From IMG/VR virus record IMGVR_UViG_3300042350_003801: 64,000 nucleotides of DNA; one strand, given 5' to 3'. The translations under genes were made by a program, and so were the position numbers. Of the stretch, positions 392 to 24,014 are shown piece after piece. The DNA comes from a virus (lineage: Duplodnaviria; Caudoviricetes). How positions within the stretch are numbered: the stretch's first letter is position 1; each line of letters starts with the position of its first letter. The notes beneath the pieces were generated by a model, which did not search any database, was not told the DNA's origin, and saw only the letters and a program-made list of their open reading frames with translations.

Positions 392-401
392 TTTAAAGTA
401 A

Positions 402-1049: not shown

Positions 1050-1142
1050 AGTTCTAAAAAGTGTTTTGTTTACCTTGTGATTATAAGAGGAGGAGCAGCG
1101 CCATCAATAAATTTGTAGACAGTTGCTCAACTGGCACAAGAG

Positions 1143-1511
1143 TTAATAAGATGGTATTACACATTGTTCAACCAACGGAACAAAAACAAGTTCGTGGCCC
1201 CGTTTCAATAAAAATGGCATAGCCATCAATTCGTAGGTTGCAATGTCAATAATATCGTCATAAAAGGTAAGATCCCAGGCAGCGGATCTAGCCGCACACC
1301 AATCATCATAACCAATAATATACCAATCAGTTTTCCGGTTACATCGTTGGTAAAAGTCTTCATCCTGTTCTTCAGTAAAACTATCAATCTTGGTCCAGAA
1401 GTCCAAAACCATCCTATAATTTGATCCAAGAAATTTTTCTGGACGCAAAAGAACTTCGGAGTTATCACCCAACTGATAAGAAAGGAGACGATGAATTTTA
1501 GAGTAGTTCAT
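1143..1511 (-). CDS. MNYS/LGPNY paralog family protein
   Basis: MNYSKIH, PEKFLGSNY..VLDFW, ATYELMAM..LL..G..L.FVPL; degenerate AARSAAWD relic. Confidence 0.8.
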   Translation of the reverse strand: MNYSKIHRLLSYQLGDNSEVLLRPEKFLGSNYRMVLDFWTKIDSFTEEQDEDFYQRCNRKTDWYIIGYDDWCAARSAAWDLTFYDDIIDIATYELMAMPFLLKRGHELVFVPLVEQCVIPSY

Positions 1512-1621
1512 AATTTATCAAAAAGAGGGACAAAAAATAGTTCATAGCCTTCTTCCAATAAAATGTGCATACTTAGTAGTTCATAGGCTGCGGGTGGCCC
1601 GCGATTCGCTGGAGATAACAT
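1508..1621 (-). pseudogene. C-terminal fragment of a family gene (37 aa)
   Basis: MLSPANRGPPAAYELLSMHILLEEGYELFFVPLFDKL; its stop overlaps the ATG of 1143..1511. Confidence 0.7.
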
Positions 1622-1684
1622 AACAGGTTTTATGGGTTTGTGGAGTGGATGGTGGACGGTTGGTTAACTGGCACGATGTAAATG

Positions 1685-3040: not shown

Positions 3041-3095
3041 CATTATCACCGTCAAAATAATTATTAAAATTTTGATGTGATTTAGAGTAGTTCAT
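3021..3095 (-). pseudogene. N-terminal fragment of a family gene cut by the tnpB element
   Basis: [20 protein letters not shown] runs into the element right end; ATGA overlap with 3092..3538. Confidence 0.7.
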
Positions 3096-3538
3096 AAGTC
3101 GTTAAAAAGAGGAACAAACAATAAATCCTTACCATCGTCCAAAAGCGTGTGCATACCAATTAGTTCATAAGTGGCATACCCGGCGGCAGACCCGGCGGCA
3201 TCCCCGGCGGCATCCCTGGCGGCAGCCCAGGCGGCAGACCCGGCGGCATCCCCGGCGGCATCCCTGGCGGCAGCCCAGGCGGCAATCCTGGCGGCAGACC
3301 CGGCGGCATCCCCGGCGGCATCCCTGGCGGCAGCCCAGGCGGCATTCCTGGCGGCAGCGTCTAGGGCATGATAACGGCGGGCAACTTCATTCCATTGGTT
3401 CTCGGTAAGACCGTCCATAAACCACCAGAAGTTAATGACGGTTTCGTAGTTTGGTCCTAGAAAATTCTGTGGATTTGTTAGGGCTTCAGGATTTTGAAGG
3501 CGGTTGGAGAAGTTTTTATGTGCTTTTGAGTAGTTCAT
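3092..3538 (-). CDS. Family protein with 15-unit AA-X-X repeat (copy A)
   Basis: Constant N- and C-terminal frames around [20 protein letters not shown] units. Confidence 0.85.
3176..3355 (-). repeat. 15 x 12-bp tandem array GCCGCC-NGG-NNT
   Basis: Units read directly; higher-order WA-RD-GD-GS block occurs three times. Confidence 0.95.
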
Positions 3539-3542
3539 AATA

Positions 3543-3573
3543 AGAAAAAATCCCTCATCAAAACTGATGAGGG
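3543..3573 (-). terminator. Intrinsic terminator-like hairpin
   Basis: Perfect 9-bp stem CCCTCATCA/TGATGAGGG followed by ATTTTTTCTT on the minus strand. Confidence 0.6.
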
Positions 3574-4253
3574 GTGCGAGAGTTTACATCAAAGATAGTA
3601 AGAATACCATCATTATCACCACAGCAAGAGTCTAGGACAATTGACTTATTATTATATGCAATTGTAACGAGATGATAATGACCACCGCAACGAATCCAAT
3701 CGTGATTAGATTCTTGGTCCCACCATTGAATCCGATTGCTATCGGAGTTCAAAACACCGTAAATGAGTTTATCCCGCATATGACGCGAGACTTCGTTAAC
3801 AGTGTAGATGCCATCATATTGCTTCGGAACATATAGTTTGGAACTAAAATATGCGTGTGAGCAACGGTATTCCAAATCATCTGCACCTTTAAATGCAACT
3901 GCAAACGGAAGTGATGCAAGCCAATCCATTAGTTCATCACTTGCAACATCAGAAGATGCAAAATCATCTAGGGTTCTTTGCAAGGATTCATCAATCTTCA
4001 CCGGATTTCCGCGAAGATAACGTTGCAGTTTCCACTGATGATTAGAGTGAATTAGTGTAACCTTTCCATCATCTTGAAGTTGGCGAATAGCACGGTAAAC
4101 TGCAACAGAATCAGATTCATCACAGCGAGAATCAAACACATCGCCGAGCATAACAAGATGGTAGTCTTGAATGTTATCGGCAATAAAAGAGAGAGCAGCA
4201 TCAAACCGCGAAAATACGGAGTGAACGTCTCCCATCAGAACAAAGTTGGTCAT
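3558..4253 (-). CDS. Calcineurin-like metallophosphoesterase
   Basis: GDVH, GDVFD, SNH, HA and GHYH motifs. Confidence 0.85.
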   Translation of the reverse strand: MTNFVLMGDVHSVFSRFDAALSFIADNIQDYHLVMLGDVFDSRCDESDSVAVYRAIRQLQDDGKVTLIHSNHQWKLQRYLRGNPVKIDESLQRTLDDFASSDVASDELMDWLASLPFAVAFKGADDLEYRCSHAYFSSKLYVPKQYDGIYTVNEVSRHMRDKLIYGVLNSDSNRIQWWDQESNHDWIRCGGHYHLVTIAYNNKSIVLDSCCGDNDGILTIFDVNSRTPHQF

Positions 4254-4318
4254 TGAAGTTTCCTGATTACACCATACTATATCATCAAGACCGACAGCGA
4301 GTTGATGGATTGTGACAG

Positions 4319-4774
4319 TTATTGAATTGTCACAATGTTTGCTTCTTCTTCGGTTGGAATTTGAAGAGATTTATACATTGATTCAATGACATAATCTGGA
4401 ATATGTTTTCCGGGGCGGCAATTGCGTTCTTTAATTAGTTCTAGTGGTGTATTAAAAAACACAATGGTTGGTTCGTGGTTTTGAAACAAATCAATCTTCA
4501 ATTTCCTGGTTTTAACAATAAGATTTGTTTGATCAATAAGGACATTCTTATCTGTAGTTGCGGCAATGCACATCAGACCATAGAAAACTTTGGCAGCCTC
4601 TTTGATCGTATTCTTCCATACATCGTTATATGTTTTATTTTGTAATTTTGCAACTTGCTCAATGTAGGCATCTGTTGAAAGATGAATGTAATTATCATAA
4701 TCGGATGAAAGAGAAAACGTGCTCTTTCCCGAACAAGGGAGTCCGCAAAGAATGATGAGTTTGGAGCTACTCAT
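4319..4774 (-). CDS. P-loop kinase (polynucleotide kinase-like, AAA_33)
   Basis: GLPCSGKST, IDQTN..R, RN..R.G..IP..VI motifs. Confidence 0.8.
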   Translation of the reverse strand: MSSSKLIILCGLPCSGKSTFSLSSDYDNYIHLSTDAYIEQVAKLQNKTYNDVWKNTIKEAAKVFYGLMCIAATTDKNVLIDQTNLIVKTRKLKIDLFQNHEPTIVFFNTPLELIKERNCRPGKHIPDYVIESMYKSLQIPTEEEANIVTIQ

Positions 4775-5127
4775 AGATTTTCTAACAATGGAATGAAGTA
4801 CAGAGAATGACCTTGATCCAATAAAACTTGCATCCCGATAATTTCGTAGCTAATCATTGCACAAGTCATATGGCCACCTAGATAATCTGATAATGTGGCT
4901 TCTCTACCAACAGTGCTACGGAAGGCAGCGAAAACTTTACTGCCATAAAATTCCGGGGAAAAAACTCCCCTCTTCGATAATTCTTCTTTTTGTTCTTGAG
5001 TAAGAGTGTCAAAAAATGTCCAAAAATTGAAAACACTTTTATAATTTGGACCAAAATGTTTTTCCGGGTTCTCAAGAACATCCGGTTGAACCCTAAGGTA
5101 TTCAGCCAGAGCATTAGAGTAAGTCAT
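4771..5127 (-). CDS. MNYS/LGPNY family protein
   Basis: NPEKHFGPNYKSVFNFW...SYEIIGMQVLLDQG..L.FIPL. Confidence 0.8.
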   Translation of the reverse strand: MTYSNALAEYLRVQPDVLENPEKHFGPNYKSVFNFWTFFDTLTQEQKEELSKRGVFSPEFYGSKVFAAFRSTVGREATLSDYLGGHMTCAMISYEIIGMQVLLDQGHSLYFIPLLENL

Positions 5128-5501
5128 AGATTTTCAAACAATGGAAGAGCTTTGATTTTATAGCCGCGTTCAATAATTGAATGCATTGCGATAATTTCGT
5201 GAGAAGCATGAGCCATGATGTGCGATTTTGGGCAATTGTCAAAAACAGTAGAACCAAGGCAACCGACGCACCCATACCAATAATCTTTTATGATATTTCT
5301 TGATTCATCAAACACAGAATAGTTAGCAGGAACTACACTACTGGGGAGTTTTTCTACCTGCCCTTTCGTTAAGTTTTCAAGAAAATTCCAAAAATTCAAG
5401 AGCGTTGCATAATTAGGCCCAAAATATTTTTCCGGGTTATCAAGAGCATCTGAAAGTGCGTGGAATCTACAAAAATTAAGATGATACTTGGAAGGTATCA
5501 T
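5124..5501 (-). CDS. MNYS/LGPNY family protein
   Basis: NPEKYFGPNYATLLNFW...ASHEIIAMH..IERG....LPLFENL. Confidence 0.8.
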   Translation of the reverse strand: MIPSKYHLNFCRFHALSDALDNPEKYFGPNYATLLNFWNFLENLTKGQVEKLPSSVVPANYSVFDESRNIIKDYWYGCVGCLGSTVFDNCPKSHIMAHASHEIIAMHSIIERGYKIKALPLFENL

Positions 5502-5920
5502 AAATTTTCGAAGAGTTTGATGTAAAGAGGTTCTATACCCCTAAGAAGAATTTTATCAATCAGATAGATTTCAAAGGATGTAGTCTGTAAGGTTACATCC
5601 TCGTTTTCTGTAATCCGAGCTATAGTTCCTCCGTGATATACACAAATCTCTTCCAATACCAACCAATAATCAAACCTGCGGATATTGTGCCTCCGTCGTC
5701 TATTTGCTTCTGCTTTTTGAAAGCCCGAAAGGCTATCATAGTAACTCCAAAAATTTAGGAGCAACTTATAATTTGGTCCAAGGGATTCTTCTAGTGGTTT
5801 TCCACCATCAATGAAGACAAGCTCGTTAAGAATCCGGGCGCGCAAGTTCATGTGAATTTTACTAACAAAGGAAGAATAGCACCAAAATCTAGAAGGTCTT
5901 GGTGCCGGTGGACAGTTCAA
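5498..5920 (-). CDS. MNYS/LGPNY family protein (divergent)
   Basis: LEESLGPNYKLLLNFW...TSFEIYLIDKILLRG..PLYIKLFENL. Confidence 0.75.
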   Translation of the reverse strand: MNCPPAPRPSRFWCYSSFVSKIHMNLRARILNELVFIDGGKPLEESLGPNYKLLLNFWSYYDSLSGFQKAEANRRRRHNIRRFDYWLVLEEICVYHGGTIARITENEDVTLQTTSFEIYLIDKILLRGIEPLYIKLFENL

Positions 5921-7404
5921 ACATCGTCCACTTGTTCAGACTCAATTGTTTCGATATCAATTTCACCTTTATCTGCCTCGGCAGTTTCTCTCATTTTAAA
6001 AGCGAAACTCTTGAACTTATAAGGTTCAATATCAATCACTTCCTTACGAAGTACGATACCTTCATCTGGAACCTTATTGACACACATATCACAATCTTTC
6101 TCAAGATAAGTATCACTCATCTTTTGAACAAAGTTTTCGTGCCAATGTTGGTCGGTAGGAATATCAAACAAGTCTTTTGCCTTGCCCCAATAAAGTTCGG
6201 GAACAACATTAAGACCGTACTTTCGGCAAAAATCCTTCACTTGTTGTGTTGAAAACTCAAACACTCTACCAGAAGGGCTAGTGAATGTGATGCGGTAGAT
6301 GTAAGTAGCAAACTCTCCAAGTTTACAACCATAGTCATATTCTTTTTGAATCCAACCACCATCTTTAGTGTATCCTACTGCCTCACAATAGAAAGTAAGA
6401 CCATCGCTCAGGTAATCTTCAAGAGAAAGGGCAATATCCCGCCAAAGGTCATAGGCATAGAAATGATTAGGAGATGGAGCAGCCTTAATAAACTTAATCC
6501 AATCTTGAATATTTTTATATGCAGCTTTTGGATTTTTGATTGCCTGGATAATATCGCTTGCAAAATGGCCAGGATTCTTTACCCAATGAACAGCATTACG
6601 TCCAAGGGTTTCATACCAAGTAAAATAATAGTTGCCATTTTTAACAACCTTACGGGAACTCCAGATAAGTTGATACTCAGTTTCTTTAACTTTTGCCCCA
6701 AGAAGTTTAGCCAGTTTGTCTTTAGTCGTGAGCCTACGGTTACACAAAACTTTACCGGCAATTGCAGAGGTTCCGTGTAGCTTTTTAGAGATATGGATTA
6801 CATCATCGGGTTTGATGTTATATGCATACTTTGCAAGATGCATCGTATCAACGTGGAATGCAAACTGTCCTTCAATCAGTTTAGATTCGCGGGCGAGTTT
6901 CTTTTGACCCTTTGGAGCCTTTGCCCGTGCTAGTTTTTGAAGCGCTTCCAGATTAATATACTTCTCACACAGAAGAACACCATCAATAGTATCAAAATCG
7001 GTGTCGGCGTGTTCCTCGGTGATTACAAAGTTGTGCTGGCGTTCCGATAGCCATTTATTGATAGAGTGTGCTGGGGAAATATAACCACTTGATTTCTCTG
7101 AACGAAGATTAATTGCCCTTACCCGACCTTTAGACGTAAAGAATCCTTTGGCTTCTTTATTCTCATTTAGGGAACTTTCTTGAAAGCTATTAGTGTAGGC
7201 AAGAAAATCCTTATTGATTGAGCACTCCAGCGGAAAGTACACATAAAGGTCATCTTCTTTTGCTTCTAGGCCAGTGATTACATTGTTGCCATCAATCGTG
7301 GTAACCTGCAAACGGTCGGCATTAGAATGTTTACGAAGATTCTTCAGTTTTACAACTTTGGCGAGATAATTGGGATTTGCCTTTTCAGAGATTTTAAGTG
7401 TCAT
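5917..7404 (-). CDS. RNA ligase (Rnl2/DRB0094-like) with N-terminal tRNA-binding-type OB fold
   Basis: N-terminal KH.NADRL; motif I KLHGTS, motif IV EGIVLR, motif V FKFKS. Confidence 0.8.
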   Translation of the reverse strand: MTLKISEKANPNYLAKVVKLKNLRKHSNADRLQVTTIDGNNVITGLEAKEDDLYVYFPLECSINKDFLAYTNSFQESSLNENKEAKGFFTSKGRVRAINLRSEKSSGYISPAHSINKWLSERQHNFVITEEHADTDFDTIDGVLLCEKYINLEALQKLARAKAPKGQKKLARESKLIEGQFAFHVDTMHLAKYAYNIKPDDVIHISKKLHGTSAIAGKVLCNRRLTTKDKLAKLLGAKVKETEYQLIWSSRKVVKNGNYYFTWYETLGRNAVHWVKNPGHFASDIIQAIKNPKAAYKNIQDWIKFIKAAPSPNHFYAYDLWRDIALSLEDYLSDGLTFYCEAVGYTKDGGWIQKEYDYGCKLGEFATYIYRITFTSPSGRVFEFSTQQVKDFCRKYGLNVVPELYWGKAKDLFDIPTDQHWHENFVQKMSDTYLEKDCDMCVNKVPDEGIVLRKEVIDIEPYKFKSFAFKMRETAEADKGEIDIETIESEQVDDV

Positions 7405-7679
7405 TGTTTTGCTCCGTAGGTTTTTTGAAGGTACTCAGAAAGATCTTTTAGTGCATCCAACTGAGATGCGAAATTATTAGATGAAGTTTTAAAATATTTT
7501 ACATATCCAAAGTGATCTTTTAACCACCATTCCCAATTACGAGTGGTGCTCTTATGATCGGAAATCTCGTGACCATATGGAATTGAAAATGAATCTCTAA
7601 TAGTATATGAATATCCTACCGGAAGAAACCTAGAAATTTTATCAATAGTTTCAATACAGGTGTCACCGAGAATTGTCAT
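7401..7679 (-). CDS. Hypothetical protein
   Basis: 92-aa ORF, translationally coupled to neighbours. Confidence 0.6.
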   Translation of the reverse strand: MTILGDTCIETIDKISRFLPVGYSYTIRDSFSIPYGHEISDHKSTTRNWEWWLKDHFGYVKYFKTSSNNFASQLDALKDLSEYLQKTYGAKQ

Positions 7680-8101
7680 TGTTTTGGATAGTTGGTTTCA
7701 ATGTAAATTTTAAGATTGGCCATTGCCTCGGCCATTGAGACAAAAGTTTCCTCAGACAAATAAGTAGCAGGACCGCAAAAAGAATCTGTATGGTCATTAA
7801 ATGCCCAAAACCAGGGTTTTTCTGGATCTAGACTTCTATTCAATTCAAATGAACACCCAAACGGAATAGGAATGTCGGGAAATCCACTGAAGGTTTCAGT
7901 TTTAGGTAATCCTACTAAATCAAGTTTACCCGCAAGTTGCCTTACAAGATTTACCAAATCATAGATATTTCGTTGTGGTTTGTTTACCCATTCTCTGCCC
8001 AAAGAAGTATCATCCAAAACAGCATTTTTATATTGCTCGGCAATATTTCGGAGGTCTTCTGTTGTCTGCCAATTGTGAATGTTTAGCTCAGTCATAATCA
8101 A
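7676..8101 (-). CDS. Hypothetical protein
   Basis: 141-aa ORF with ATGA overlaps. Confidence 0.6.
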   Translation of the reverse strand: MIMTELNIHNWQTTEDLRNIAEQYKNAVLDDTSLGREWVNKPQRNIYDLVNLVRQLAGKLDLVGLPKTETFSGFPDIPIPFGCSFELNRSLDPEKPWFWAFNDHTDSFCGPATYLSEETFVSMAEAMANLKIYIETNYPKQ

Positions 8102-8487
8102 GAAAGAAGATTTTTGATTTCGAGAATCAACCAGACCTTAGGTGCAGTGATGTTAAGAATAAGACTTTCCGCTGATGGGTAAAACTTATCACAGAAGGTG
8201 AAAATGATGCCCATAGCCATAAACATTAGGCCAGGAATTTCTGAACCAGACAAATCGTGATTTGGATTATTTACTGACCATCTCAAAAGTCGTTTAAAAC
8301 AAAAAATCAAGGCGATTATAAATGCGCCAGAGATAACCATACCAAGAAGATTACTCCAGAAACCGTACCAAACATATTGCAATGCAATGTCTGGAAGTTC
8401 CTTCATCGAGAAATCTTTCGTTGCATTAACAGCAACTAGCATCTGCTTAAGAATCTCGGCAAGTTGAGCCTGAAGTTGTTGGTTCAT
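8098..8487 (-). CDS. Hypothetical membrane protein
   Basis: Two hydrophobic stretches; follows a dyad-hairpin promoter. Confidence 0.6.
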   Translation of the reverse strand: MNQQLQAQLAEILKQMLVAVNATKDFSMKELPDIALQYVWYGFWSNLLGMVISGAFIIALIFCFKRLLRWSVNNPNHDLSGSEIPGLMFMAMGIIFTFCDKFYPSAESLILNITAPKVWLILEIKNLLS

Positions 8488-8558
8488 TGGTTGTTATGAT
8501 GTTGTCTATAGTAGACTAGGGCATCCAGAAGACCAGATGCCCCCAGGTGTGCCAGTTC

Positions 8559-9089
8559 TCAGAGTGGCGTGGTTGAGATTCTATATCCATTAAACTTTGC
8601 CTTGGCTGTCTTACACTTTGTATTAACACCAGTAACAACAACCATAACTGGAGGATTTTGTCCAGTATAAAGAAGAACTTCACCAGTTGTCACTTTGCCT
8701 TCTTCACTAGCGAAGTGTTCGGTGCGGCCGTTAACGTTAACAGAGAAAGTGTAAGGAACAACTTCCGTAAAATTGTCTTTAGGAAGAGTGTGAAGTGCTC
8801 CTGAACCTTTTTCTTCTACCACCCAATCTCCTGCACTATTTGTGGCAAGATAGGTCGCATAGCCAGTGGTGCCGTCTTCCTTGTTGAAGGAATAAAGTTG
8901 AGTTGAATTGGTCATAGTTTCGGGGTCTCCTGTGTAGTGAATGATGTTGCTTTTTGCGAATTCAACTGTCTTATTATTATGCAGATATGCTGCATTAACA
9001 TAATAAGCGCCTTTGTAAGTATAAGTTACTCGCGCCGGCCTTGTGCCAGTTTTGGAGATAATAATATCCCCTTCTTTAAATTCAGCCAT
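8559..9089 (-). CDS. Hypothetical phage protein
   Basis: 176-aa ORF after a dyad promoter. Confidence 0.65.
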   Translation of the reverse strand: MAEFKEGDIIISKTGTRPARVTYTYKGAYYVNAAYLHNNKTVEFAKSNIIHYTGDPETMTNSTQLYSFNKEDGTTGYATYLATNSAGDWVVEEKGSGALHTLPKDNFTEVVPYTFSVNVNGRTEHFASEEGKVTTGEVLLYTGQNPPVMVVVTGVNTKCKTAKAKFNGYRISTTPL

Positions 9090-9165
9090 TCATAGTTTGT
9101 TGGTGAAGGACTCTTTTAGTATTGCACGATTTCTGGTGCTCAGATAAACCCAGTGTGCCAGTTTG

Positions 9166-9882
9166 TCAGGTGTCACTTGAAAGATTAAAAATTAATGGAG
9201 TTGTGGTAGTAATTACCTCTCCGCGTTTGGGGAAATGAGCATCTTTTTCAGCAACATATGCGAGTTCTTCTTTATAAATGGTGAACAATAGTAGTTCACC
9301 ATTAAACTTTTCAGTATAAATGTATTCGGGAACGTTAAAATGTTCCGAAATCATTTTCAACATCGTTCTGATGAGTTTTGGACGGCCTTTAGTTCTAGGG
9401 AGCATATCTAAAGAAGGAATGTGCAATTCAATCTTGTCTTCCGTGAACACTGCCAAGCTATAAGGAGTTTTATAATGTTTCCCTCCGCTTGGAAAAGTAT
9501 AAATTTTTACATTAGGGTGAATGCTCAAAATGGCATCATTATTTTCAGTGATTTTAACAATGAATTTACGGTCTTTGCTATTTGGTTGATGGTCGTCTGA
9601 ATCAAATGGTTCTCGGTTTTTAATCGCTTCCATCATCAGAGGAAACATCTCCTCATTGCTAAGGTCAAACTTTAAACTTTTTGGTTTAATGTAATCTTGA
9701 TAAGCATCTTCGAGTTCCTTTGCCAACTCAAACTTCGCTACACCTTCATTTGTGAGAAGTTGCATAGTATCCGTAAAAAACTCATATTCATACCAGTTGT
9801 AGCCAGGCAGTTCACCAAGCCTGACATATTGATTACCTTTGTACCCAATGTTAATAAACGAACCGTGACCTTGAATGTCCAT
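9166..9882 (-). CDS. Hypothetical protein
   Basis: 238-aa ORF whose stop lies inside the dyad at 9155-9176. Confidence 0.65.
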   Translation of the reverse strand: MDIQGHGSFINIGYKGNQYVRLGELPGYNWYEYEFFTDTMQLLTNEGVAKFELAKELEDAYQDYIKPKSLKFDLSNEEMFPLMMEAIKNREPFDSDDHQPNSKDRKFIVKITENNDAILSIHPNVKIYTFPSGGKHYKTPYSLAVFTEDKIELHIPSLDMLPRTKGRPKLIRTMLKMISEHFNVPEYIYTEKFNGELLLFTIYKEELAYVAEKDAHFPKRGEVITTTTPLIFNLSSDT

Positions 9883-9917
9883 TGAAAATTGGTGGTGAAC
9901 TTCAGTAGAATACGGGA

Positions 9918-10304
9918 CTAATTCAAAAAAGCATCCATAGGTGTGCCAGTTTCAGAAGTGTCCAATCCGTCAAACATTAAAAGAAACGTAAGTTCACCGG
10001 CTTCATCTAAAATTTCTTGGGCTGCAATAATTTCAAAAGTTGCAAACAGTGATGCACCCCAAAGGTGTATTGACGGCCTAACGGATTCTGAAATTACTTT
10101 ATTGGTAGACCTAATAGTGAGTTTATCAACTATTTTCCTTTTTGTATACCGCATTTTGTCATTACGAGACCGAACGGCACTAATCTGTTCCACACTAAGA
10201 TTTTCCAAAAATAGCCAAAAGTTCAGGACCGTTTGCCAATTCGGTCCTAATTCCTCAACACTGTACCGCTTTTCAAACACAATTTGTGTTTTAGACTTTT
10301 TCAT
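9918..10304 (-). CDS. MNYS/LGPNY family protein (divergent)
   Basis: ELGPNWQTVLNFW...ATFEIIAAQEILDEAGELTFL.MF. Confidence 0.75.
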   Translation of the reverse strand: MKKSKTQIVFEKRYSVEELGPNWQTVLNFWLFLENLSVEQISAVRSRNDKMRYTKRKIVDKLTIRSTNKVISESVRPSIHLWGASLFATFEIIAAQEILDEAGELTFLLMFDGLDTSETGTPMDAFLN

Positions 10305-10894
10305 TAGTATTTAAGCAATTTTGCGGTTTGGAGCATTTCTTCCAGTTTATGTTGCCGCTGTAGAAGGTGAAAGAAGAACCTCAAAGTATTAAAGGCATCA
10401 TCCTCAGCTCGGTGTGGATTGCCAATAAAAGACAACTTATGTTTACCCATTGAAGAACGCAACCCACCAGAAAGTGCCCGACCATTTGCAGCCTCAATAA
10501 AGAGGAAAAAATGCTTCACGTCTATAAATCGTCTACCAAAATATGGAAAGTGGATGCCATTATTTTTAAACTCATCAAGAAGTTCATTGGAATCACCTAC
10601 TCCCCATTGGACCGCATTGACAAATGGCTTATGGGTGTCAATAAGATTTGATAGCCATTCAGCGGCTTCTTGAAGTTCTACTCCACCGTCAACATCTTCT
10701 TGTGTAATTCCTGTAATTTCGGTTGTTCTGGGGTGAAGCGGCTTTTTGATTTTAATAAGTTTGGAGTCTTTCAGAAAAATATTACCAGGAGAACCAATAG
10801 CAATACCCACTTCACATATTTCATCAGTTTGTATGCCATCGGTGTTCAATTCAAGGTCCAAAGATAGGTAAAAATTCTCACGAATTGGGTTCAT
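10304..10894 (-). CDS. DEDDh 3'-5' exonuclease (DnaQ-like)
   Basis: SLDLE, WG..D, H.AEDDA motifs. Confidence 0.8.
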   Translation of the reverse strand: MNPIRENFYLSLDLELNTDGIQTDEICEVGIAIGSPGNIFLKDSKLIKIKKPLHPRTTEITGITQEDVDGGVELQEAAEWLSNLIDTHKPFVNAVQWGVGDSNELLDEFKNNGIHFPYFGRRFIDVKHFFLFIEAANGRALSGGLRSSMGKHKLSFIGNPHRAEDDAFNTLRFFFHLLQRQHKLEEMLQTAKLLKY

Positions 10895-11252
10895 TATTAA
10901 TGGTAAATAGTGGAATATATTTGAGGGTTTCTCCCCGTTTAAGAAGAAGATGCATTGTAATCAATTCAAAGACTGGCAGAGGATACGGCAGTCTACCTCT
11001 AATTTCCTCTGATGTAATCTCTAAAACCGTTTCCCTTAGAAGCTGATTATACAGACTATTAAAATCGGCAACTCTTGCAACGCTATTTTTAGCATCAATG
11101 AATCTCAATTCATTATTATAATAAAGAGCATAAAAGTTCATTACCGACCGGTAATTTGGGCCAAGATACTTCTCGGGATTTTCAGTAAAGTCTTTAGGAA
11201 AAGTGGTAGATATAAAAGATTTCAATTTGAAGTTACTAAAGGAGTAGTTCAT
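10878..11252 (-). CDS. MNYS/LGPNY family protein
   Basis: NPEKYLGPNYRSVMNF...FELITMHLLLKRG..L.YIPLF. Confidence 0.8.
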   Translation of the reverse strand: MNYSFSNFKLKSFISTTFPKDFTENPEKYLGPNYRSVMNFYALYYNNELRFIDAKNSVARVADFNSLYNQLLRETVLEITSEEIRGRLPYPLPVFELITMHLLLKRGETLKYIPLFTINNEPNS

Positions 11253-11662
11253 AAGTCGTTAAAAAGAGGAACAAACAATAAATCCTTACCATCGTCCAAA
11301 AGCGTGTGCATACCAATTAGTTCACAAGTGGCAGACCCGGCGGCGGCAACGACACGCCGATCGGAGGCGGCATCCCCGGCGGCATACCCGGCGGCATACC
11401 AGGCGGCATCCCTGGCGGCATCCCTGGCGGCATTCCTGGCGGCATACCCGGCGGCATACCTGGCGGCATCGTCTAGGGCATGATAACGGCGGGCAACTTC
11501 ATCCCATTGGTTCTCGGTAAGACCATCCATAAACCACCAGAAGTTAAGGACGGTTTCGTAGTTTGGTCCTAGAAAATTCTGTGGATTTGTTAGGGCTTCG
11601 GGATTTTGAAGTTCGTTGGAGAAGTTTTGATGTGCTTTTGAGTAGTTCATATTCAGAGCCAA
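11249..11662 (-). CDS. Family protein with AA-X-X repeat (copy B)
   Basis: Frames nearly identical in DNA to copy A; likely start is the MNYS Met at 11650. Confidence 0.85.
11333..11467 (-). repeat. GCCGCC-NGG-NNT array (9 conforming units, one TCCGAT unit and a short non-repeat insert)
   Basis: Read directly. Confidence 0.9.
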
Positions 11663-12611: not shown

Positions 12612-13009
12612 AATTTATCAAAAAGAGGAACGTATACAAGACTATGCATCTGTTCAAGTGTAAGATGCATTGAAATGAGTTCATCCGTTGCCCATTCTAC
12701 TGCATAAACTTGATCAATGTGCCTACCTTCCCCTACACAAACTCGCTGTGCTGCACCCCAAATAACAGTGCTTTCTACGGCCATTTGAACCTTGAGAGAA
12801 TTACTCACAACTAATCCATTGTGCTTAAAATTTTCCCCAAGTAAAGAATATCTTTCCCCAACATTTTCCCATTGGGAATCATTAAGACCTTCAAGAAACC
12901 ACCAGAAGTTAAGAATTTCTTTATAGTTTGGACCCATATATTTTTCCGGTTCGATGAGTCGGTCAACTACATCTCCAGCAAATCGTTGGTGAATTTTAGA
13001 GTAGGTCAT
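12608..13009 (-). CDS. MNYS/LGPNY family protein
   Basis: PEKYMGPNYKEILNFWW...ATDELISMH..L....LVYVPLFDKL. Confidence 0.8.
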   Translation of the reverse strand: MTYSKIHQRFAGDVVDRLIEPEKYMGPNYKEILNFWWFLEGLNDSQWENVGERYSLLGENFKHNGLVVSNSLKVQMAVESTVIWGAAQRVCVGEGRHIDQVYAVEWATDELISMHLTLEQMHSLVYVPLFDKL

Positions 13010-13447
13010 AATTTGTCAAAAAGAGGGAGAAAAGTTAGTCTGTGTCCATCGTCAAGAAGTATATCCATTACTACAAGTTCCAATGTTGCATAACCTAAGA
13101 CAGATGAATTATCATATTTCGTTTTTTCTGGTTCCGGGCCGAAATACCTGGCACATTTCCAGACTTCAAGTTGTCGGTGAACCCGCTGTTCTGCATAATC
13201 CCCTAAATAATAAGACCAACTCGGTTCTCGTATGGACCTAATGAATTCTCTATCAAGTCTATCAACAAAATACCAGAAATCAAACACAGTCTTATAATTT
13301 GGACCTAATGAATTCTCTATCAAGTCTATCAACAAAATACCAGAAATCAAACACAGTCTTATAATTTGGTCCGAAGTGCTTTACAACATCATCAAGAGCA
13401 TCGGGGTATTTTTCAAGATAATATCTAAGGGCAGTAGGATGGTTCAT
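13006..13447 (-). pseudogene. Family gene frameshifted by a 67-bp tandem duplication
   Basis: ATG at 13447 reads MNHPTALRYYLEKYPDALDDVVKHFGPNYKTVFDFW...RSKL*; the second repeat copy leads to ATLELVVM...FLPLFDKL in another frame. Confidence 0.8.
13233..13369. repeat. Perfect 67-bp tandem duplication
   Basis: Copies start at 13234 and 13301; bounded by GGACC, GGACC, GGTCC. Confidence 0.95.
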
Positions 13448-13522
13448 AAAAAGGTGGTTTAACAAAACGATACTAACAGACGGCGGGCAGTTTGGGAGAT
13501 CAAGTGGCCAGTCTTAAAACTG

Positions 13523-15016
13523 TCACCTACGATCTTGCTCAGGTTTTACTAATGGAAAGGCTATTACATCACGAATTGACGGATTATCAGTAAGGAGCAT
13601 TACCAAACGATCAATACCAATACCAAGACCGCCACAAGGAGGCATCCCAACCTCTAAAGCCTGAATAAAATCCTCATCAATAGTTTGTGCTTCGGGGTCT
13701 CCCAATCTGTGTCGTTCTTGTTGAATCTCCAAACGGTTTAACTGTTCAACTGGATCAATAAGTTCGCTAAAAGCATTCGCAGTTTCTCTTCCAACAATAA
13801 ATAACTCAAATCTTTCAACGAATCCTGGCTTACTACGATGTGAGCGAGCTAAGGGAGAAACTTCAACCGGATAATCAATCACAAAGGTTGGTTGAATTAA
13901 AGTTTCTTCTACTCTTTGTTCAAATGTAGATACCATCAGTCGTCCAAGAGAATCAGCATTACTTGGAACATCTAATCCCTTTGAGCACATTGCAATGACC
14001 GCATCTTCCCTAGTTTCAAAACTTGTAAAATCAAGTCCGGTTATTTCATTAACCAATTCAGTCATAGAGACCCTCCGCCAAGGTGGAGTTAAATTGATTG
14101 GTTGCCCCTGATAAATAATCTCTGTTTCCCCAGATGCAAAAACTATCATTTCCTCAGTGAGATTCATCATATCATAATAATCTGAATATGCCTTATAAAT
14201 TTCAACTGAAGTAAACTCTGGATTATGGCGGGTACTGATTCCCTCATTGCGGAAAATTCGGCCAAGTTCATAAACTTTTTCAAAGCCCCCGACCACCATT
14301 CGCTTAAGATGTAACTCTGTTGCGATTCTCAGCGTAAGAGGAATATCAAGGGCATTATGATGCGTCTCAAAAGGGAGAGCATCTGCTCCACCAACAGTGG
14401 GATTTAAAACAGGAGTTTCGATCTCTAAAAATCCCTTATCATCCAGCCAGCGGCGAATGCTGCTGACAATATTCGCTCTACGGCGAAATGTTTCCCGACT
14501 GCGCGAAGAAGTGATTAAATCTAAATAACGGCGGCGATAACGGGTCTCAACGTTCGCAAGACCGTGCCACTTATCCGGCAAAGGCTGTAATGACTTACTG
14601 AGCATCTGCCAGTCTTTTAGTTTTACAGAAAGTTCACCACGATTAGTGCGTTTAATAGAACCGCTCACACCAATCCAGTCACCGATATCAACTAAGGTTG
14701 TAATCTGATTAAAGCAATCTGTGCCATTATCCCGTAAAAATGCCATATCGACATAGACTTGTATCGTTCCACCTTCATCGGCTAGAGTTAGGAAAGATAG
14801 TTTCCCCATAATTCTTCGGGCAATAACTCTGCCAGCAACTGTAACCTCCTGCTCACACTCTTCACCGTTGATTAAATTTGCATGAATTATATGCAATTCA
14901 GATGCACTATGACTAACAGTGAAATTAATTGCATATGGTGTTTTGCCAATACTCTCAAGAGCGCGAGCTTTTTCCAACCGAGTTTCTCTTAAGTCTGATA
15001 AGTTTTTAGAAGTCAT
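13523..15016 (-). CDS. lysS: Lysyl-tRNA synthetase, class II, full length
   Basis: OB anticodon domain (GRV...R.MGK..F), YRRRYLDL, motif 2 [14 protein letters not shown], motif 3 GMPP.GG.GIGIDRL. Confidence 0.95.
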
Positions 15017-15052
15017 TTTAGTTTCGTGTTTTGAATAGTAATTTAAAAAATG

Positions 15053-16276
15053 TCACTTACGATCTTGCATAATCGGGATTTCTCCGTTTTCATAAACGCT
15101 TTCAACGGTAGAATGAATTGTATCTGAAACTGCCTGAAGATTCTTATTGTAAACGGGAATGATTACCTTCCCCTCCGGTTTCAAATAACTTTCATAGTCT
15201 CCAACCTCAAGTGTTCCTTCTTCAATAGCCTTTGAATCTTCAGTAGAGATACGCAAGGTTCTTCCGATGTTTTGGACCAACTTAATAAGATTGAGTTGTC
15301 GCATCAAAAGAACAGCATCCAAAGATTTAACGTTGATTCCTTCTCCAAGAATAGAGTAGTTAAGAATCACATACTTACGCTCAGTGGAACTTCCAAGTTC
15401 ATCTAGAACTTCAAAGAACTTATCGCGTTCAATCTTTTGACCATTATGAAATGCCCCGTGATGTGCCGTAATATGAAGAAGGTCATAACCAAGTTCTTCT
15501 AGTTTTACTGCAAAGTTGGTTTCACTTAACATTTCCATCATCTTTTTTGTTGACTTAACGCATACAAGCAGTTTAGACAAGTCATATTCTTGGATAATAT
15601 TCAAAATATCATCCGCATCGTGTTGAGGTTGCCTTTCATCAATCCATTCAAGAGGATGTGAAATAACTCTCGGCTTAAGAATGTAACCCCCTATAATTAA
15701 CTCAGAAGCAGTTGCTTTTGCAATGATACTACCATAAACAGAATCATTCATTCCAGCCTTCTTGATTGTTGAACTAAATCTTGGAGTTGCGGTAAAATGA
15801 TAACAACGTTTAGTGGTCTCGCTGACATTCTTTACATACTCGTGAAACCCTGCAGATGTTGAGTTGTGCGACTCATCAAACATAAAGGTATCTACCTTAA
15901 TGCCCGATGCATAAATCTTCTTTAAGGAATGATAGGTTGCAAAGATTAGTTTATGGTGGGTCTTATGAATCTCAGTCCACTCTTTAATCGTTTTTGCATT
16001 GGTGGTATGATAATGCCTTACCTTGCCGTTTTTTGTGTGAACGTGTAGAAACTTGGCATTGTCAATATGCTTACCATAATCAAACGATAGTTGGGAAGCA
16101 AGAAGAATCCTTGGTGCAACAACAACTACAGTTTGCGGTTCATCTTTTTCAAACTCTCGTTTAGTATCAAAAATCTGAACATTAGTTTTCCCGGCACCAG
16201 TTGCCATTACAATGATGCCACGGTCTGTTTCAGAAAGCACAACAAGTGCTTGCTCTTGATGAGGACGGAGTTGCAT
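15053..16276 (-). CDS. Superfamily 2 helicase (ResIII-like)
   Basis: LRPHQ, TGAGKT, DESHN, TATP, EGINV, QNIGR motifs. Confidence 0.85.
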   Translation of the reverse strand: MQLRPHQEQALVVLSETDRGIIVMATGAGKTNVQIFDTKREFEKDEPQTVVVVAPRILLASQLSFDYGKHIDNAKFLHVHTKNGKVRHYHTTNAKTIKEWTEIHKTHHKLIFATYHSLKKIYASGIKVDTFMFDESHNSTSAGFHEYVKNVSETTKRCYHFTATPRFSSTIKKAGMNDSVYGSIIAKATASELIIGGYILKPRVISHPLEWIDERQPQHDADDILNIIQEYDLSKLLVCVKSTKKMMEMLSETNFAVKLEELGYDLLHITAHHGAFHNGQKIERDKFFEVLDELGSSTERKYVILNYSILGEGINVKSLDAVLLMRQLNLIKLVQNIGRTLRISTEDSKAIEEGTLEVGDYESYLKPEGKVIIPVYNKNLQAVSDTIHSTVESVYENGEIPIMQDRK

Positions 16277-16677
16277 TAAAAAGAAAGCATAGGAATAAAA
16301 ATCAATTCTTCGCCTTTATCAAGAATAGTTTGTAGGGCAATAAGTTCAAAAGTGACTGGGGCAGGAATGCTTGGAAACTTTCCTATAATATTTCTAACGA
16401 GGCTTCTAGATGCACTTGCGGCAGTAGCTCGTCTGTCCCAATCTAAAATTTCTTCAACATGATCAACGATCTCACAATATCTATTATTATATTGCATTTG
16501 TTTTAAACTATACTTACCTTCAAGTTCTAATAGTTGTTCTTTTGTCAACGTTTCAAGATACCACCAAAAGTTAAGGACTGCTTCATAGTTTGGTCCTAGA
16601 TAATTTTCAGGATTATCATATACTTCGTGAGTGCCATTGCGCTCAGCCAGATCTTGATGGGCTTTAGAGTAGTTCAT
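16276..16677 (-). CDS. MNYS/LGPNY family protein
   Basis: NPENYLGPNYEAVLNFWW...VTFELIALQTILDKG..L.FIPM. Confidence 0.8.
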   Translation of the reverse strand: MNYSKAHQDLAERNGTHEVYDNPENYLGPNYEAVLNFWWYLETLTKEQLLELEGKYSLKQMQYNNRYCEIVDHVEEILDWDRRATAASASRSLVRNIIGKFPSIPAPVTFELIALQTILDKGEELIFIPMLSF

Positions 16678-17120
16678 AAGTCGTTAAAAAGAGGAACAAA
16701 CAATAAGTCCTTACCGTCATTCAATAGAGTATGCATACCCATTAGTTCATAAGTGGCAGACCTGGCGGCATCCCAGGCGGCATACCTGGCGGCAGACCCG
16801 GCGGCATCCCTGGCGGCATTCCCGGCGGCAGACCAGGCGGCAGACATGGCGGCATCCCTGGCGGCAGCCCAGGCGGCATCCCTGGCGGCATACCCGGCGG
16901 CAGCCCAGGCGGCATCCCTGGCGGCAGCGTCTAGGGCATCATAACGGCGGGCAACTTCATTCCATTGGTTCTCGGTAAGACCATCAATAACCCACCAGAA
17001 GTTAATGACGGTTTCGTAGTTTGGTCCTAGAAAATTCTGTGGATTTGTTAGGGCTTCAGGGTTTTGAAGGCGGTTGGAGAAGTTTTTATGTGCTTTTGAG
17101 TAGTTCATATTCAGATACAA
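16674..17120 (-). CDS. Family protein with 14-unit AA-X-X repeat (copy C)
   Basis: Same frames as copies A and B; likely start is the MNYS Met at 17108. Confidence 0.85.
16758..16925 (-). repeat. 14 x 12-bp array, 13 conforming to GCCGCC-NGG-NNT
   Basis: Read directly; one ATGTCT unit deviates. Confidence 0.95.
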
Positions 17121-17608
17121 TAAAGTTCAAGTTCAAATTCACGGTCTTTCAAGTTTTTAATTTTTTGAAGAACCTCCTGGCGATGATTTTCAAATCCCGA
17201 AATCCAAAAAACTCCCTCAAACGTTTCTACAAAATTGGGATAATTTTTCCACTCTTTTTCTACATATTCATCAAACTCCTTTTCACCTTTCCAATGAACT
17301 CTATCAATAATAACTCCTTCTTCTAGCATTTTAAAAAATGATTCTTTAGTCCAGCCACTATTGTTGCTTTCAGTGAAGATAATTCTATCTTCTATTTGAA
17401 AATCAATAGCTTTATTCCACTCAAAATATTCCCCAATTTGAGCATCGAAAGTTGGAATAGACATAATTGAGTCCGTTACAGCAGTTGGTGTCTGCCATAA
17501 AATGTCGTGCCGTTCTACTTGTTCTTCAGGCTCACCCGAAGGTAGAGTAACAATTCTGGTTGCCAAAAGATAAAGGTTGAAACTCATTTCGTTTAAGAGG
17601 TTGCCCAA
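17111..17608 (-). CDS. Hypothetical protein
   Basis: 165-aa ORF. Confidence 0.6.
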   Translation of the reverse strand: MGNLLNEMSFNLYLLATRIVTLPSGEPEEQVERHDILWQTPTAVTDSIMSIPTFDAQIGEYFEWNKAIDFQIEDRIIFTESNNSGWTKESFFKMLEEGVIIDRVHWKGEKEFDEYVEKEWKNYPNFVETFEGVFWISGFENHRQEVLQKIKNLKDREFELELYCI

Positions 17609-17688
17609 TGGTTATAGGAGATTTTTGACGAGAATTGTGATTTGGTGTGCCAGTTTAACAATTGTCTTCTTAGGAATTTCGGCAGCGA

Positions 17689-18507
17689 TTATTCTGGCAC
17701 AGAAAGACGTTCTACTCCACCCATATACGGAATCAATGCGGCAGGCAAGGCAACACTACCATCACTTTGTTGACCATATTCTAATAATGCTGCCATTGTG
17801 CGGCCAACCGCTAGACCGCTACCATTAAGAGTGTGTAACAATTGAACATTCTTATTATCCCTAAAGCGAATAGATGAGCGGTTAGCCTGAAAATCAGTAC
17901 AAGTGCTACAACTAGAAATCTCGCGGTAAGTACCAGCGCCAGCCATCCAGACCTCTAAATCATAAGTGCGAGCAGCAGAAAATCCTAAATCTCCGCCACA
18001 TAGTTCCATACGGCGATAAGGTAATTCTAGAGCCTCTAGTATGCCTTCAGCATCGCAGGTAAGTTGTTCGTGAGCTTCCAACGATTTTTCGGGATGACAG
18101 AACCAATACAGCTCAACTTTATTAAACTGATGTAAACGAATTAACCCTCTTGTATCTCTTCCATAAGAACCAGCCTCGCGGCGGAAGCAGGGTGTATGCG
18201 CCACATATTTTAAGGGTAGGCGATCTATATTAATGATCTCGTCACGATGTAGGGCAGTGATAGGAACCTCGGCCGTGGGAGTAAGCCATAGATCATCATT
18301 AGCACACTTAAAACTTTCATCCGCAAATTTGGGAAGTTGCCCCGAACCAGTCAGACTTGTGCTATTTACTAAAATTGGGGGCATAACCTCTTTATATCCA
18401 TTGCCAGTATGACGATCGAGCATAAAAGAAATCAAAGCCCTTTCTAATTTAGCCCCCTGTCCCAATAAAGTCACAAAACGACTTTGTGCAATACGCACGG
18501 AACGTTC
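17689..18507 (-). CDS. serS: Seryl-tRNA synthetase catalytic domain only (N-terminal arm missing); possibly a pseudogene
   Basis: [57 protein letters not shown]; homology begins abruptly at [11 protein letters not shown]; GTG at 18498. Confidence 0.9.
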
Positions 18508-18608
18508 ACGGTTGCATAGTTTGGTCCTAAAAAGTCTTGTGGATTGGTAAGTGCTTCTGGTTTTTGTAGGAGGTCAGAAAATTTTTGATGGACATTTGAG
18601 TGATTCAT
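18471..18608 (-). pseudogene. N-terminal fragment of a family gene joined out of frame to serS
   Basis: [34 protein letters not shown] then serS DNA from 18507. Confidence 0.8.
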
Positions 18609-18973
18609 AGGTCTTTGGTTGAGAAAACTACGTTATCTTGGGATGGTTTAAGTTTGTTCATCATATTTGTGAGCAGCCGCTCCGGTTCTGTTGAATTGTC
18701 CCAGTACATTACGGTCCAGTAACTAGCTCGTGATTCGTAATCAGCCCTATAAAATCTATAACCCATTGGGGCTGGTGTTAGGTCTTCATGTAGAATATCT
18801 CCACTGATTGGCGGGCCGCTATACCCTTTAGGCACTCTACGAATATAAAATATGGTTTTAGTTGATTTCCGGCTAAACAGATGTTCCCAAAAACCCGTCT
18901 CCACTACTTCAAAGGCAACCTCATAAAAATATCGATTGAAATCAAATTGGTGTTCAAGTGAATAATAAGTCAC
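18605..18973 (-). CDS. Hypothetical protein
   Basis: 122-aa coupled ORF. Confidence 0.6.
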   Translation of the reverse strand: MTYYSLEHQFDFNRYFYEVAFEVVETGFWEHLFSRKSTKTIFYIRRVPKGYSGPPISGDILHEDLTPAPMGYRFYRADYESRASYWTVMYWDNSTEPERLLTNMMNKLKPSQDNVVFSTKDL

Positions 18974-19689
18974 AGCTCTGGAAAATAAGAGAACACTTCT
19001 TCCGAAACAAAAACATCATCAGACCGAAGAAATGCTTTAATTTCAGAATAATCTTCGCCAGGACGAATATGATAAGTATAACCTCCACCGTGAGCACTAG
19101 TTCCACAATAAAAGTGTCGCCCATCTACATCATCAACTACCGCCCAGTCATCAGTACAATCCCATCCTTTGTACTCAATCGCACCAGAGTCAATGATTGT
19201 TCCAGTTTTATGAACAAGGGAAAGTTGACGGTATTCCCGTGCTTCATCAACTACATCAATTACTTTCGTTTCACAAAATCTTACAGAGATTCCAAGTTGT
19301 TCAGTGAGTTGTTCACAAAGATTCAAAATTTTCTCCCCGTCAAATGGAAGTTCCATATCTACAATTTCATTAGAATAAATCTCGTTAAAACTCTTATTCT
19401 CTGTAACTACAAATTTCCCGTTTCCAATGTAGTTTGCATAAGGATAACTTGTATGATAAAGTTCCATTAAGGGTTCACGTTCAGGACCAAAATGTAGGCT
19501 ACAAACTTGAATACCCGAGAAAACCTGAGATACAGGAAACCCTGCAGATTTTAGAGTTTCTTTAACATATTTTTCGAGAGTATCTGAAAGTTCCTGTCTC
19601 TTTTTTATACTTTTTTGATACATATCATTGATTCCAAGGAAAGTTTTAATCTCTTGTTGAATGTCACATTTAGAGAGAGGGAAATTCAT
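18970..19689 (-). CDS. Hypothetical protein
   Basis: 239-aa ORF after a promoter module. Confidence 0.65.
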   Translation of the reverse strand: MNFPLSKCDIQQEIKTFLGINDMYQKSIKKRQELSDTLEKYVKETLKSAGFPVSQVFSGIQVCSLHFGPEREPLMELYHTSYPYANYIGNGKFVVTENKSFNEIYSNEIVDMELPFDGEKILNLCEQLTEQLGISVRFCETKVIDVVDEAREYRQLSLVHKTGTIIDSGAIEYKGWDCTDDWAVVDDVDGRHFYCGTSAHGGGYTYHIRPGEDYSEIKAFLRSDDVFVSEEVFSYFPEL

Positions 19690-22802: not shown

Positions 22803-22838
22803 TATAAATAGATATGTAATAAACAAATATTACATATG
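22803..22838 (+). promoter_or_regulatory. T4-type late promoter plus hairpin over the tnpB start codon
   Basis: TATAAATA at 22803-22810; 10-bp perfect stem 22812-22821/22828-22837 including A and T of the ATG. Confidence 0.75.
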
Positions 22839-24014
22839 AAACATAGAGCATACAAATATAGGTTCTATCCTACTCAAGACCAAGAAGTTATTCTTCGCAA
22901 GTCTATGGGGTGTGCTCGTTTTGTCTATAATTATTTTCTTGATTATAAAAGCAAAAAGTGGAAAGAAGAACAAAAGAGTGTTTCAGTATATGAAACATCT
23001 CGCATTCTCACACAACTCAAGAAAGAAACTGAATATGAATGGTTAAAGGAGCCGGTAGCGGCTGTGCTTCAAGGTTCTCTTATCAATCTAAATGATGCAT
23101 ATCAGAGGTTCTTTAAAGGTAAGGCAAACTATCCAAAGTTTAAGAAAAAGTCTAGAAGAAATAGTCTCTATTTTTCACCAAATGCCTTTTCGTATAAGAA
23201 CGGAAATATTAGTCTCTACAAATGTGGAGTAATTAATATTCGTTGGAGTAGAACTTTACCGGATGGAGTTTACCCAAAGAGTTGTGTAGTTTCACTTGAA
23301 CCTTCCGGTCGTTGGTGTATTTCTATTTTAATAGAAGACCCAACAATAGAAGAACTTGAACCGGTAGAAAAATCTATCGGTCTTGATATGGGCATTAATC
23401 ATTTTGTGGTTTCAAGTGATGGAAATAAAATTAAGTCTCCTGCTCTTAAAAAAGAGTACGCCAAATTAAAAAAACTACAAAGAAAATTAAGTAAAAAACA
23501 AAAAGGTTCTAATAACAGGCATAAAGCAAGATTAAAAGTTGCTAAACAATATCAAAAAATTACTGATATTAGAACCGATTTTCAACAAAAACTTTCAACT
23601 AAACTGGTGCGCGAGAACCAAACCATCTGTTTAGAAACTTTGAATATTGTTGGAATGGTAAAGAACCGCAAACTTTCAAGAGCAATTAGTGAAGCATCTT
23701 GGGGAACTTTTATTGATATGCTTGAGTATAAATGCGGTTGGTATGGTCGTAATCTTGTGAGGATTGACCGTTGGTATCCTTCAAGCAAAACTTGCAGTTC
23801 TTGCGGTTCAGTTCAGTCTAAAATGCCATTAAATATTCGTGAATGGACTTGCCCGAATTGTGGGGTTCATCACGATAGAGATATTAATGCAGCAAAGAAT
23901 ATTCTTGCGGTAGGAAATACCGTCTATGCCTGTGGAGGTAATGTAAGACCAAAGGAAGTGAGTTCCAGAGGCAATTCCGTTGAAGCAGGAAACTTAAACT
24001 GTGAGGTTAAGTAA
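22836..24014 (+). CDS. tnpB: TnpB, second lineage
   Basis: RAYKYRFYP, GLDMG / ETL / DRDINA, CSSC..CPNC. Confidence 0.95.
   Translation: MKHRAYKYRFYPTQDQEVILRKSMGCARFVYNYFLDYKSKKWKEEQKSVSVYETSRILTQLKKETEYEWLKEPVAAVLQGSLINLNDAYQRFFKGKANYPKFKKKSRRNSLYFSPNAFSYKNGNISLYKCGVINIRWSRTLPDGVYPKSCVVSLEPSGRWCISILIEDPTIEELEPVEKSIGLDMGINHFVVSSDGNKIKSPALKKEYAKLKKLQRKLSKKQKGSNNRHKARLKVAKQYQKITDIRTDFQQKLSTKLVRENQTICLETLNIVGMVKNRKLSRAISEASWGTFIDMLEYKCGWYGRNLVRIDRWYPSSKTCSSCGSVQSKMPLNIREWTCPNCGVHHDRDINAAKNILAVGNTVYACGGNVRPKEVSSRGNSVEAGNLNCEVK

Follow-up and report, generated by a model that had tools for sequence, protein, structure and literature searches.

How did a T4-like phage come to carry the gene for a complete lysyl-tRNA synthetase (LysRS), and why would it keep it? 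The gene lies on the minus strand of a 64,000-nt stretch of DNA, in the following called the window, from a T4-like lake phage with a genome of 250,336 bp (~250 kb) and 38% GC. It extends from position 13523 to 15016, starts with ATG and encodes a protein of 497 aa (P0001). A sequence-only reading of this stretch, made without database searches, had described a full-length class II LysRS with intact anticodon and catalytic domains, and we could confirm this identity. Pfam finds a complete OB-fold anticodon-binding domain at residues 58–139 (PF01336, profile positions 1–75 of 75), and the class II D/K/N catalytic core spans residues 156–489. The protein matches the NCBIfam equivalog model for lysS (TIGR00499) with 610 bits (cut-off 427.6), and the alignment pairs residues 7–493 with profile positions 3–495 of 496, that is, end to end. 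PRK00484 likewise matches end to end, with 661 bits (cut-off 468). The EpmA/GenX models score under their cut-offs. The closest solved structure is that of the Geobacillus LysRS (3a74, E 1e-151, residues 5–491).

We aligned the phage protein with 58 cellular LysRS sequences (28 from picocyanobacteria, 18 from other cyanobacteria and 12 outgroups). Across all 58, 102 columns are invariant, and the phage protein keeps 99 of them. These include R256, N257, E258, G259 and H264–F268 of motif 2 (FRNEG, HNPEF), the residues E272, Y274, E234, E404, E411, N414 and E418, and G465, G467, D469 and R470 of motif 3 (GxGxDR470). We take their equivalents in the numbering of E. coli LysU to be R262, E264, H270–F274, E278/Y280, E240, E414/E421/N424/E428 and R480. 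R63, F75 and Q86, presumably the class IIb residues that read the anticodon (U35), are also unchanged in universally invariant columns. Substitutions at universally invariant positions are D155N and Q162R, present in all three phage alleles that we found, and R426L, confined to the window allele and that of contig L089. These two alleles also have R214L, in a column that is the same in at least 90% of the sequences. The phage protein thus shares the domain order and the mapped catalytic and lysine-binding positions of bacterial class II LysRS (E. coli LysS/LysU, PDB 1e1o/1bbu; Geobacillus 3a74), but differs from them by D155N, Q162R and a GC3 of 30%. To judge from these residues, it is probably a working, canonical enzyme with catalytic activity.

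LysRS has phage genes as neighbours, namely those for a core cyanomyovirus helicase, denV, RNase T, an RNA ligase and gp32, and baseplate and tail-fibre genes. Directly before LysRS lies the helicase gene (15053–16276, minus strand), which encodes an SF2 (DEAD/ResIII) enzyme, belongs to the T4-like cyanophage core and occurs in 420 cyanophage records. LysRS was inserted at its 3' end, as discussed below. The gp32 protein is 57% identical to those of Synechococcus phages B3 and B23. The window also codes for baseplate hub and wedge proteins (PHROGs matches), a 2,028-aa tail fibre, NAMPT and an NMNAT-Nudix protein, and a matching contig (L129) carries Gp59_N, gp53 and T4_baseplate. T4-type core genes with cyanophages as their nearest relatives point to a T4-like cyanomyovirus. 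The sequence-only reading had placed LysRS among genes of a T4-like phage, and gp32, the baseplate and tail PHROGs and the 420-record helicase agree with it.

Relatives of the locus are scarce in phage collections. A megablast query with positions 13000–19000 against the phage collection gave no DNA-level relatives, and LysRS had no match among its cyanophage records, 420 of which carry the helicase. LysRS matches in phage-labelled records mostly look like host contamination of multi-contig records and were not accepted as phage genes. A search of IMG/VR returned one helicase fragment and one unrelated LysRS, 48% identical to ours, which sits at the extreme end of its contig (L007, positions 1–11491 of the 80-kb record IMGVR_UViG_3300028454_001165).

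Is the gene really part of the phage genome? The sequence-only reading had itself named a chimera of phage and host contigs as what would overturn it, and all that speaks for such an assembly artefact is the prior that synthetase genes are unusual in such phages. The identical LysRS protein is encoded by six contigs from ENA, JGI and Logan, and its neighbourhood there is the same (helicase, small ORFs, denV, RNase T and RNA ligase). A second allele with 98.6% identity is encoded on L089, a 78.5-kb JGI contig, and a third with 85% identity on three contigs of up to 56.8 kb (L001–L003) with the same synteny. The junctions thus recur in independent assemblies and assemblers, and the junction itself consists of duplicated phage sequence. 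The best identity to a cellular protein is only 72%. Base composition speaks against a host contig as well: the gene has a GC of 41.1% and a GC3 of 30.3%, close to the ORFs of the window (GC3 31.5 ± 7.4%), whereas the lysS genes of twelve picocyanobacteria have a GC3 of 72–91%. Together with the purifying selection described next, recurrence and phage-like GC3 exclude the chimera, to which we give practically no credence.

A GC3 that is phage-like and not host-like means that the synonymous sites have fully drifted to phage composition, and such complete amelioration implies long retention in the phage. The gene has not decayed during this time. The three diverged phage alleles contain neither frameshifts nor stops, and the dN/dS ratio (Nei-Gojobori) is 0.078 for the window and L001, at a dS of 1.06, and has the same value for the window and L089. 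For the core helicase, ratios of 0.056–0.096 were obtained. By these estimates LysRS shows purifying selection among phage lineages. It would still be conceivable that the gene is a neutral passenger on its way to decay, a host gene without benefit like the truncated serine enzyme (SerRS) nearby. LysRS is missing from most close relatives, the window allele carries R214L and R426L at conserved positions, and the neighbouring SerRS copy has lost part of its sequence. Against such a passenger stand the low dN/dS over a dS of about 1, the intact reading frames of three diverged alleles and the long retention implied by GC3, and we regard it as very improbable.

The donor of the gene can be narrowed down from the protein. 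Phage LysRS is 68–75% identical to the enzymes of picocyanobacteria, 57–62% to those of other cyanobacteria and about 50% to those of other bacteria. The N-terminus had been singled out from the sequence alone as cyanobacterial in appearance; the cyanobacterial affinity holds, but it is not a property of the N-terminus alone, since the identity gradient covers the whole protein. The same reading had proposed a phylogeny against host LysRS, and in each of our three trees the phage clade falls with or inside the picocyanobacteria: the phage alleles form one clade that is joined to this group with 99–100% support. The trees differ in the exact placement. In the FastTree result, the phage clade is the sister group of the picocyanobacteria (support 87) and not nested. 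IQ-TREE puts it within them, together with the metagenomic proteins P0004, P0005 and P0006, both under LG+G4 (95% SH-aLRT) and under LG+C20+F+G4 PMSF (97% SH-aLRT). The P0006 cluster includes Cyanobium sp. ELA507. The phage clade sits on a long stem of 0.29–0.42 changes per site, as would result from an old capture, from accelerated evolution or from the two together. These trees point to a freshwater picocyanobacterium as the donor, and we claim nothing more precise.

LysRS lies on a cassette of 1,530 bp that directly follows the core helicase gene and is flanked by direct repeats of 18–23 nt. The left, upstream copy (15046–15068, minus strand) reads GCAAGATCGTAAGTGACA, then TTTTT, and comprises the helicase 3' end with the stop codon. 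The right, downstream copy (13516–13538, minus strand) reads GCAAGATCGTAGGTGACA, then GTTTT, and provides the last four codons of LysRS (QDRR) and its TGA. On the coding strand, the helicase ends with ...ATG CAA GAT CGT AAG TGA CA and LysRS with ...GAG CAA GAT CGT AGG TGA CA. The shared 18-mer GCAAGATCGTARGTGACA has exactly two matches in the window, and two matches occurred in none of 100 shuffles. In its extended form (repeat family D10) the repeat has 23 nt, of which 21 are identical, and the copies are 1,530 nt apart. The cassette also includes the 34 nt that separate the left repeat from the LysRS ATG (15017–15050, minus strand), a leader whose homologue is still recognisable in L001, the relative with 85% LysRS identity.

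The repeat also accounts for the C-terminus of the protein. Homology with host LysRS stops at ..(K/R)PE, where the cyanobacterial enzymes go on with a variable tail of 8–20 aa. The phage enzyme does without this tail and has four helicase-copied codons instead. QDRR and the stop codon of LysRS have therefore been copied from the helicase, which ends in QDRK and a stop. The LysRS of L001 is shorter at its C-terminus, as a TGA follows straight after KPE. An exact empty site is found in L122, a 243-kb relative whose helicase is 96% identical: its helicase ...ATGCAAGATCGTGTGTGACAGTTTTAAGACTGGCCAC... is followed without a break by the intergenic sequence that in the window lies behind LysRS. The insertion site of L090 is likewise empty. 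Illegitimate recombination, repair of a staggered break or a single crossover via short homology would each give such a structure.

The stop codon of LysRS had also been reported from the sequence alone to lie inside a dyad. Its location is correct, as the TGA (13523–13525) lies in the 5' arm of an imperfect hairpin at 13501–13529 (minus strand), but the structure is weak here (-9.5 kcal/mol, z -1.8, with 13 of 200 shuffles as good) and not terminator-like. The corresponding hairpin of L001 is stronger (-13.8, z -4.6). We rejected a function as terminator: there is no T-run, no terminator was called, and the fold of 91 nt is not better than that of shuffled sequences (z 0.01). The local 29-nt fold alone stands out, and only mildly. 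A repeated mobile element (a PeSL-like cassette) was rejected as well, the hairpin sequence being found only once in the window. Because the hairpin also occurs in the empty sites of L122 and L090, it belongs to the ancestral helicase terminus and not to the cassette.

Among the haplotypes whose helicase is at least 68% identical, three carry LysRS (the window, L089 and L001–L003) and five do not (L122, L135/L136, L090, L137/L138 and L091). Presence of the gene does not track helicase similarity, as the closest helicase, that of L122, comes without LysRS. LysRS is an accessory gene, and since five of the eight close haplotypes do without it, any benefit must be conditional. Between the window and L089, LysRS has a dS of 0.078 and the adjoining helicase a dS of 0.466. 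The region is thus a mosaic, and the contrast indicates that the LysRS cassette or its flank has recently recombined.

A second synthetase gene lies upstream of the helicase. It encodes the catalytic core of a SerRS (269 aa; 17689–18498, minus strand, with homology up to 18528), matches TIGR00414 positions 159–418 with 402 bits and is devoid of the N-terminal tRNA-binding arm. L122 encodes a full SerRS of 425 aa that is 97% identical to the window copy and 86–87% identical to picocyanobacterial SerRS; no SerRS was found in the relatives L089, L001 and L090. In the window copy, homology begins at residue 147, beside a segment (18508–18609) that matches, with 81% identity, the beginning of a small paralogous ORF of L122. 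Recombination has thus probably removed the 5' portion of the gene.

Several other features of the region deserve mention. Paralogous ORFs of about 130–150 aa without known domain are dispersed over the window (3092–3538, 11249–11662, 16276–17120, 57139–57750 and others), and L122 DNA matches several of these copies at 73–86% identity; such repeats may drive rearrangements in the region. Three TnpB genes of the IS200/IS605 type are found on the plus strand (1814–3010, with a guided_TnpB match of 338 bits, 22836–24014 and 33529–34725), and TnpB genes occur at other positions in L001, L090 and L122. Just downstream of LysRS, an exact tandem duplication of 67 nt (13233–13366) interrupts a small ORF and leaves pieces of 57 and 114 aa. 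This ORF is intact (124 aa) in L004 and L089, whose LysRS is identical or near-identical. Upstream of the helicase, L089, L090, L122 and L001 have an Xre_MbcA_ParS_C antitoxin-like gene adjoining an RlaP nucleotidyltransferase gene.

What, then, could the enzyme be good for? In T4, Pnkp and Rnl1 repair tRNA-Lys that has been cleaved by PrrC, and the tRNA-Lys of T5 neutralises PARIS. The sequence-only reading, which named PrrC and PARIS, had suggested that LysRS was captured to sustain the lysylation of repaired or phage-encoded tRNA-Lys. On this view, charging with lysine would continue while tRNA-Lys is under attack by a host anticodon nuclease such as PrrC, RloC or a PARIS-type system, and the substrate of phage LysRS would be either the repaired tRNA-Lys or a nuclease-resistant phage tRNA-Lys that host LysRS handles poorly. 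Like T4, our phage has kinase, phosphoesterase and ligase genes, which form an RNA heal-and-seal set 6–10 kb from LysRS, and tRNA-Lys is a contested molecule. The patchy presence of LysRS would also suit a conditional benefit tied to host defence. The set occupies 3558–7404 on the minus strand, with small family genes interspersed, and consists of an RNA ligase of 495 aa (5917–7404), an AAA_33 kinase (4319–4774) and a metallophosphoesterase (3558–4253) with weak similarity to bacterial Pnkp (E 1.6e-8), PrpE (E 1e-6) and ApaH (E 1e-5). But a tRNA scan found no tRNA gene at all, and hence no tRNA-Lys, in the 64-kb window or in eight related loci. Nor did we see LysRS depend on the repair module. 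The RNA ligase is kept by the LysRS-less relatives L090, L091, L122 and L137/L138, so the two genes do not co-vary. Furthermore, the putative anticodon-reading residues and those of the active site are of the host type, with no hint of an altered tRNA target, and a correctly repaired tRNA should be charged by host LysRS anyway. We know of no synthetase in any T4 Pnkp/Rnl1- or T5 tRNA-Lys-type system. Taken together, we consider a role in counter-defence unlikely.

A bolder version would have LysRS co-evolve with a nuclease-resistant phage tRNA-Lys, with D155N and Q162R as adaptations, and so open a private channel for lysine decoding under host defence. If true, this would be the first synthetase-based anti-defence device; we see it as a long shot.

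The enzyme might also be kept mainly for a side reaction. E. coli LysU makes diadenosine tetraphosphate (Ap4A), and a phage LysRS with this activity could manipulate host stress signalling or RNA capping. The nearby metallophosphoesterase weakly resembles the Ap4A hydrolases PrpE and ApaH, and D155N and Q162R, at invariant positions, leave room for altered properties. Yet the phosphoesterase is closer to bacterial Pnkp and adjoins a kinase gene, and the anticodon-binding domain of LysRS is complete and under selection, although a tRNA-independent role would not need the OB domain. Such moonlighting seems distinctly improbable.

We also looked at the demand for lysine itself. The phage sample consisted of the window ORFs of at least 150 aa, without the two synthetases, and the host-like sample of ORFs from three Cyanobium-type genomes (120 kb). 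Lysine makes up 7.28% of the phage residues and 1.68% of 26,182 host-like residues, the latter being a small and crudely filtered sample that may not represent the true host. None of the other 19 amino acids reaches the resulting phage-to-host ratio of 4.34; next in line are Asn (3.2), Tyr (2.6) and Ile (2.1). AAA accounts for 64% of the lysine codons in the phage and for 10–18% in the host sample. Serine is enriched by a factor of only 1.5.

These numbers are better matched by a role in supply than by the anti-nuclease purpose proposed earlier. Our preferred reading, with a probability of roughly 0.55, is that a captured picocyanobacterial LysRS has been kept by selection because it would add to the supply of charged tRNA-Lys; both the activity and this role are inferred from the sequence data. 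The data show the identity and integrity of the gene, its origin, the architecture of its insertion, its selection and the demand ratio for lysine. An ancestor of the lake T4-like cyanophage lineage acquired LysRS from a Cyanobium-like picocyanobacterial host by insertion of a 1.53-kb cassette right behind the stop codon of the core helicase, with duplication of ~18–23 nt of the target. Purifying selection has maintained the gene since then; it is accessory and passes from one co-circulating phage to another through recombination. Lysine charging in the host would be tuned to proteins with less than 2% lysine, whereas infection would demand proteins with about 7%. LysRS made by the phage would raise the charging capacity for tRNA-Lys during infection and ease a translation bottleneck at AAA/AAG codons. 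As lysine has the largest demand ratio, the supply reading would explain why LysRS, rather than another synthetase, has been retained. Some observations do not sit well with it. D155N and Q162R in all phage copies, and R426L and R214L in the window allele, affect conserved positions, most close haplotypes live without the gene, and the logic of supply does not predict the SerRS of the relatives because serine is enriched only 1.5-fold.

Synthetases in large phages are already known. [quoted passage not shown] Our case resembles those of huge and jumbo phages in that the gene is host-derived, sits in a genome of more than 200 kb with RNA-repair genes and falls near the host lineage in the tree. 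It differs in being a single LysRS in a T4-like cyanomyovirus, and in that insertion site, empty site, selection and a quantitative rationale are documented here. In cyanophages, tRNA genes reportedly compensate for codon usage in AT-rich phages that infect GC-rich hosts. The parallel is that an AT-rich phage supplies components of translation that it needs more than its host does, but here it is the charging enzyme and not the tRNA, so that the supply reading would extend this accepted view. Our literature searches gave no report of a cyanophage LysRS. A paper on the Microcystis phage PhiMa05 names a 'LysU' gene (PMC8093824), which we rejected as a relative: the sole Microcystis phage record with a match, MW495066 (MaAM05), has 27% identity, and the gene is annotated as aspS. 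What the cyanophage LysRS adds to the known cases is an unusually complete natural history.

Why large viruses gather translation genes is an open question that has mostly been argued in general terms. The repeat-flanked cassette and its empty site give a detailed view of the entry of a housekeeping gene from a host into a T4-type genome. The case is also unusually testable: a single synthetase, clearly derived from a host, has long been retained under selection, and natural LysRS-plus and LysRS-minus relatives differ at one exactly defined site. The captured enzyme is the one for lysine, whose demand in the phage relative to the host (4.3-fold) exceeds that of any other amino acid. Should the supply reading be right, the translation genes that a phage acquires might be predictable from its amino-acid demand.
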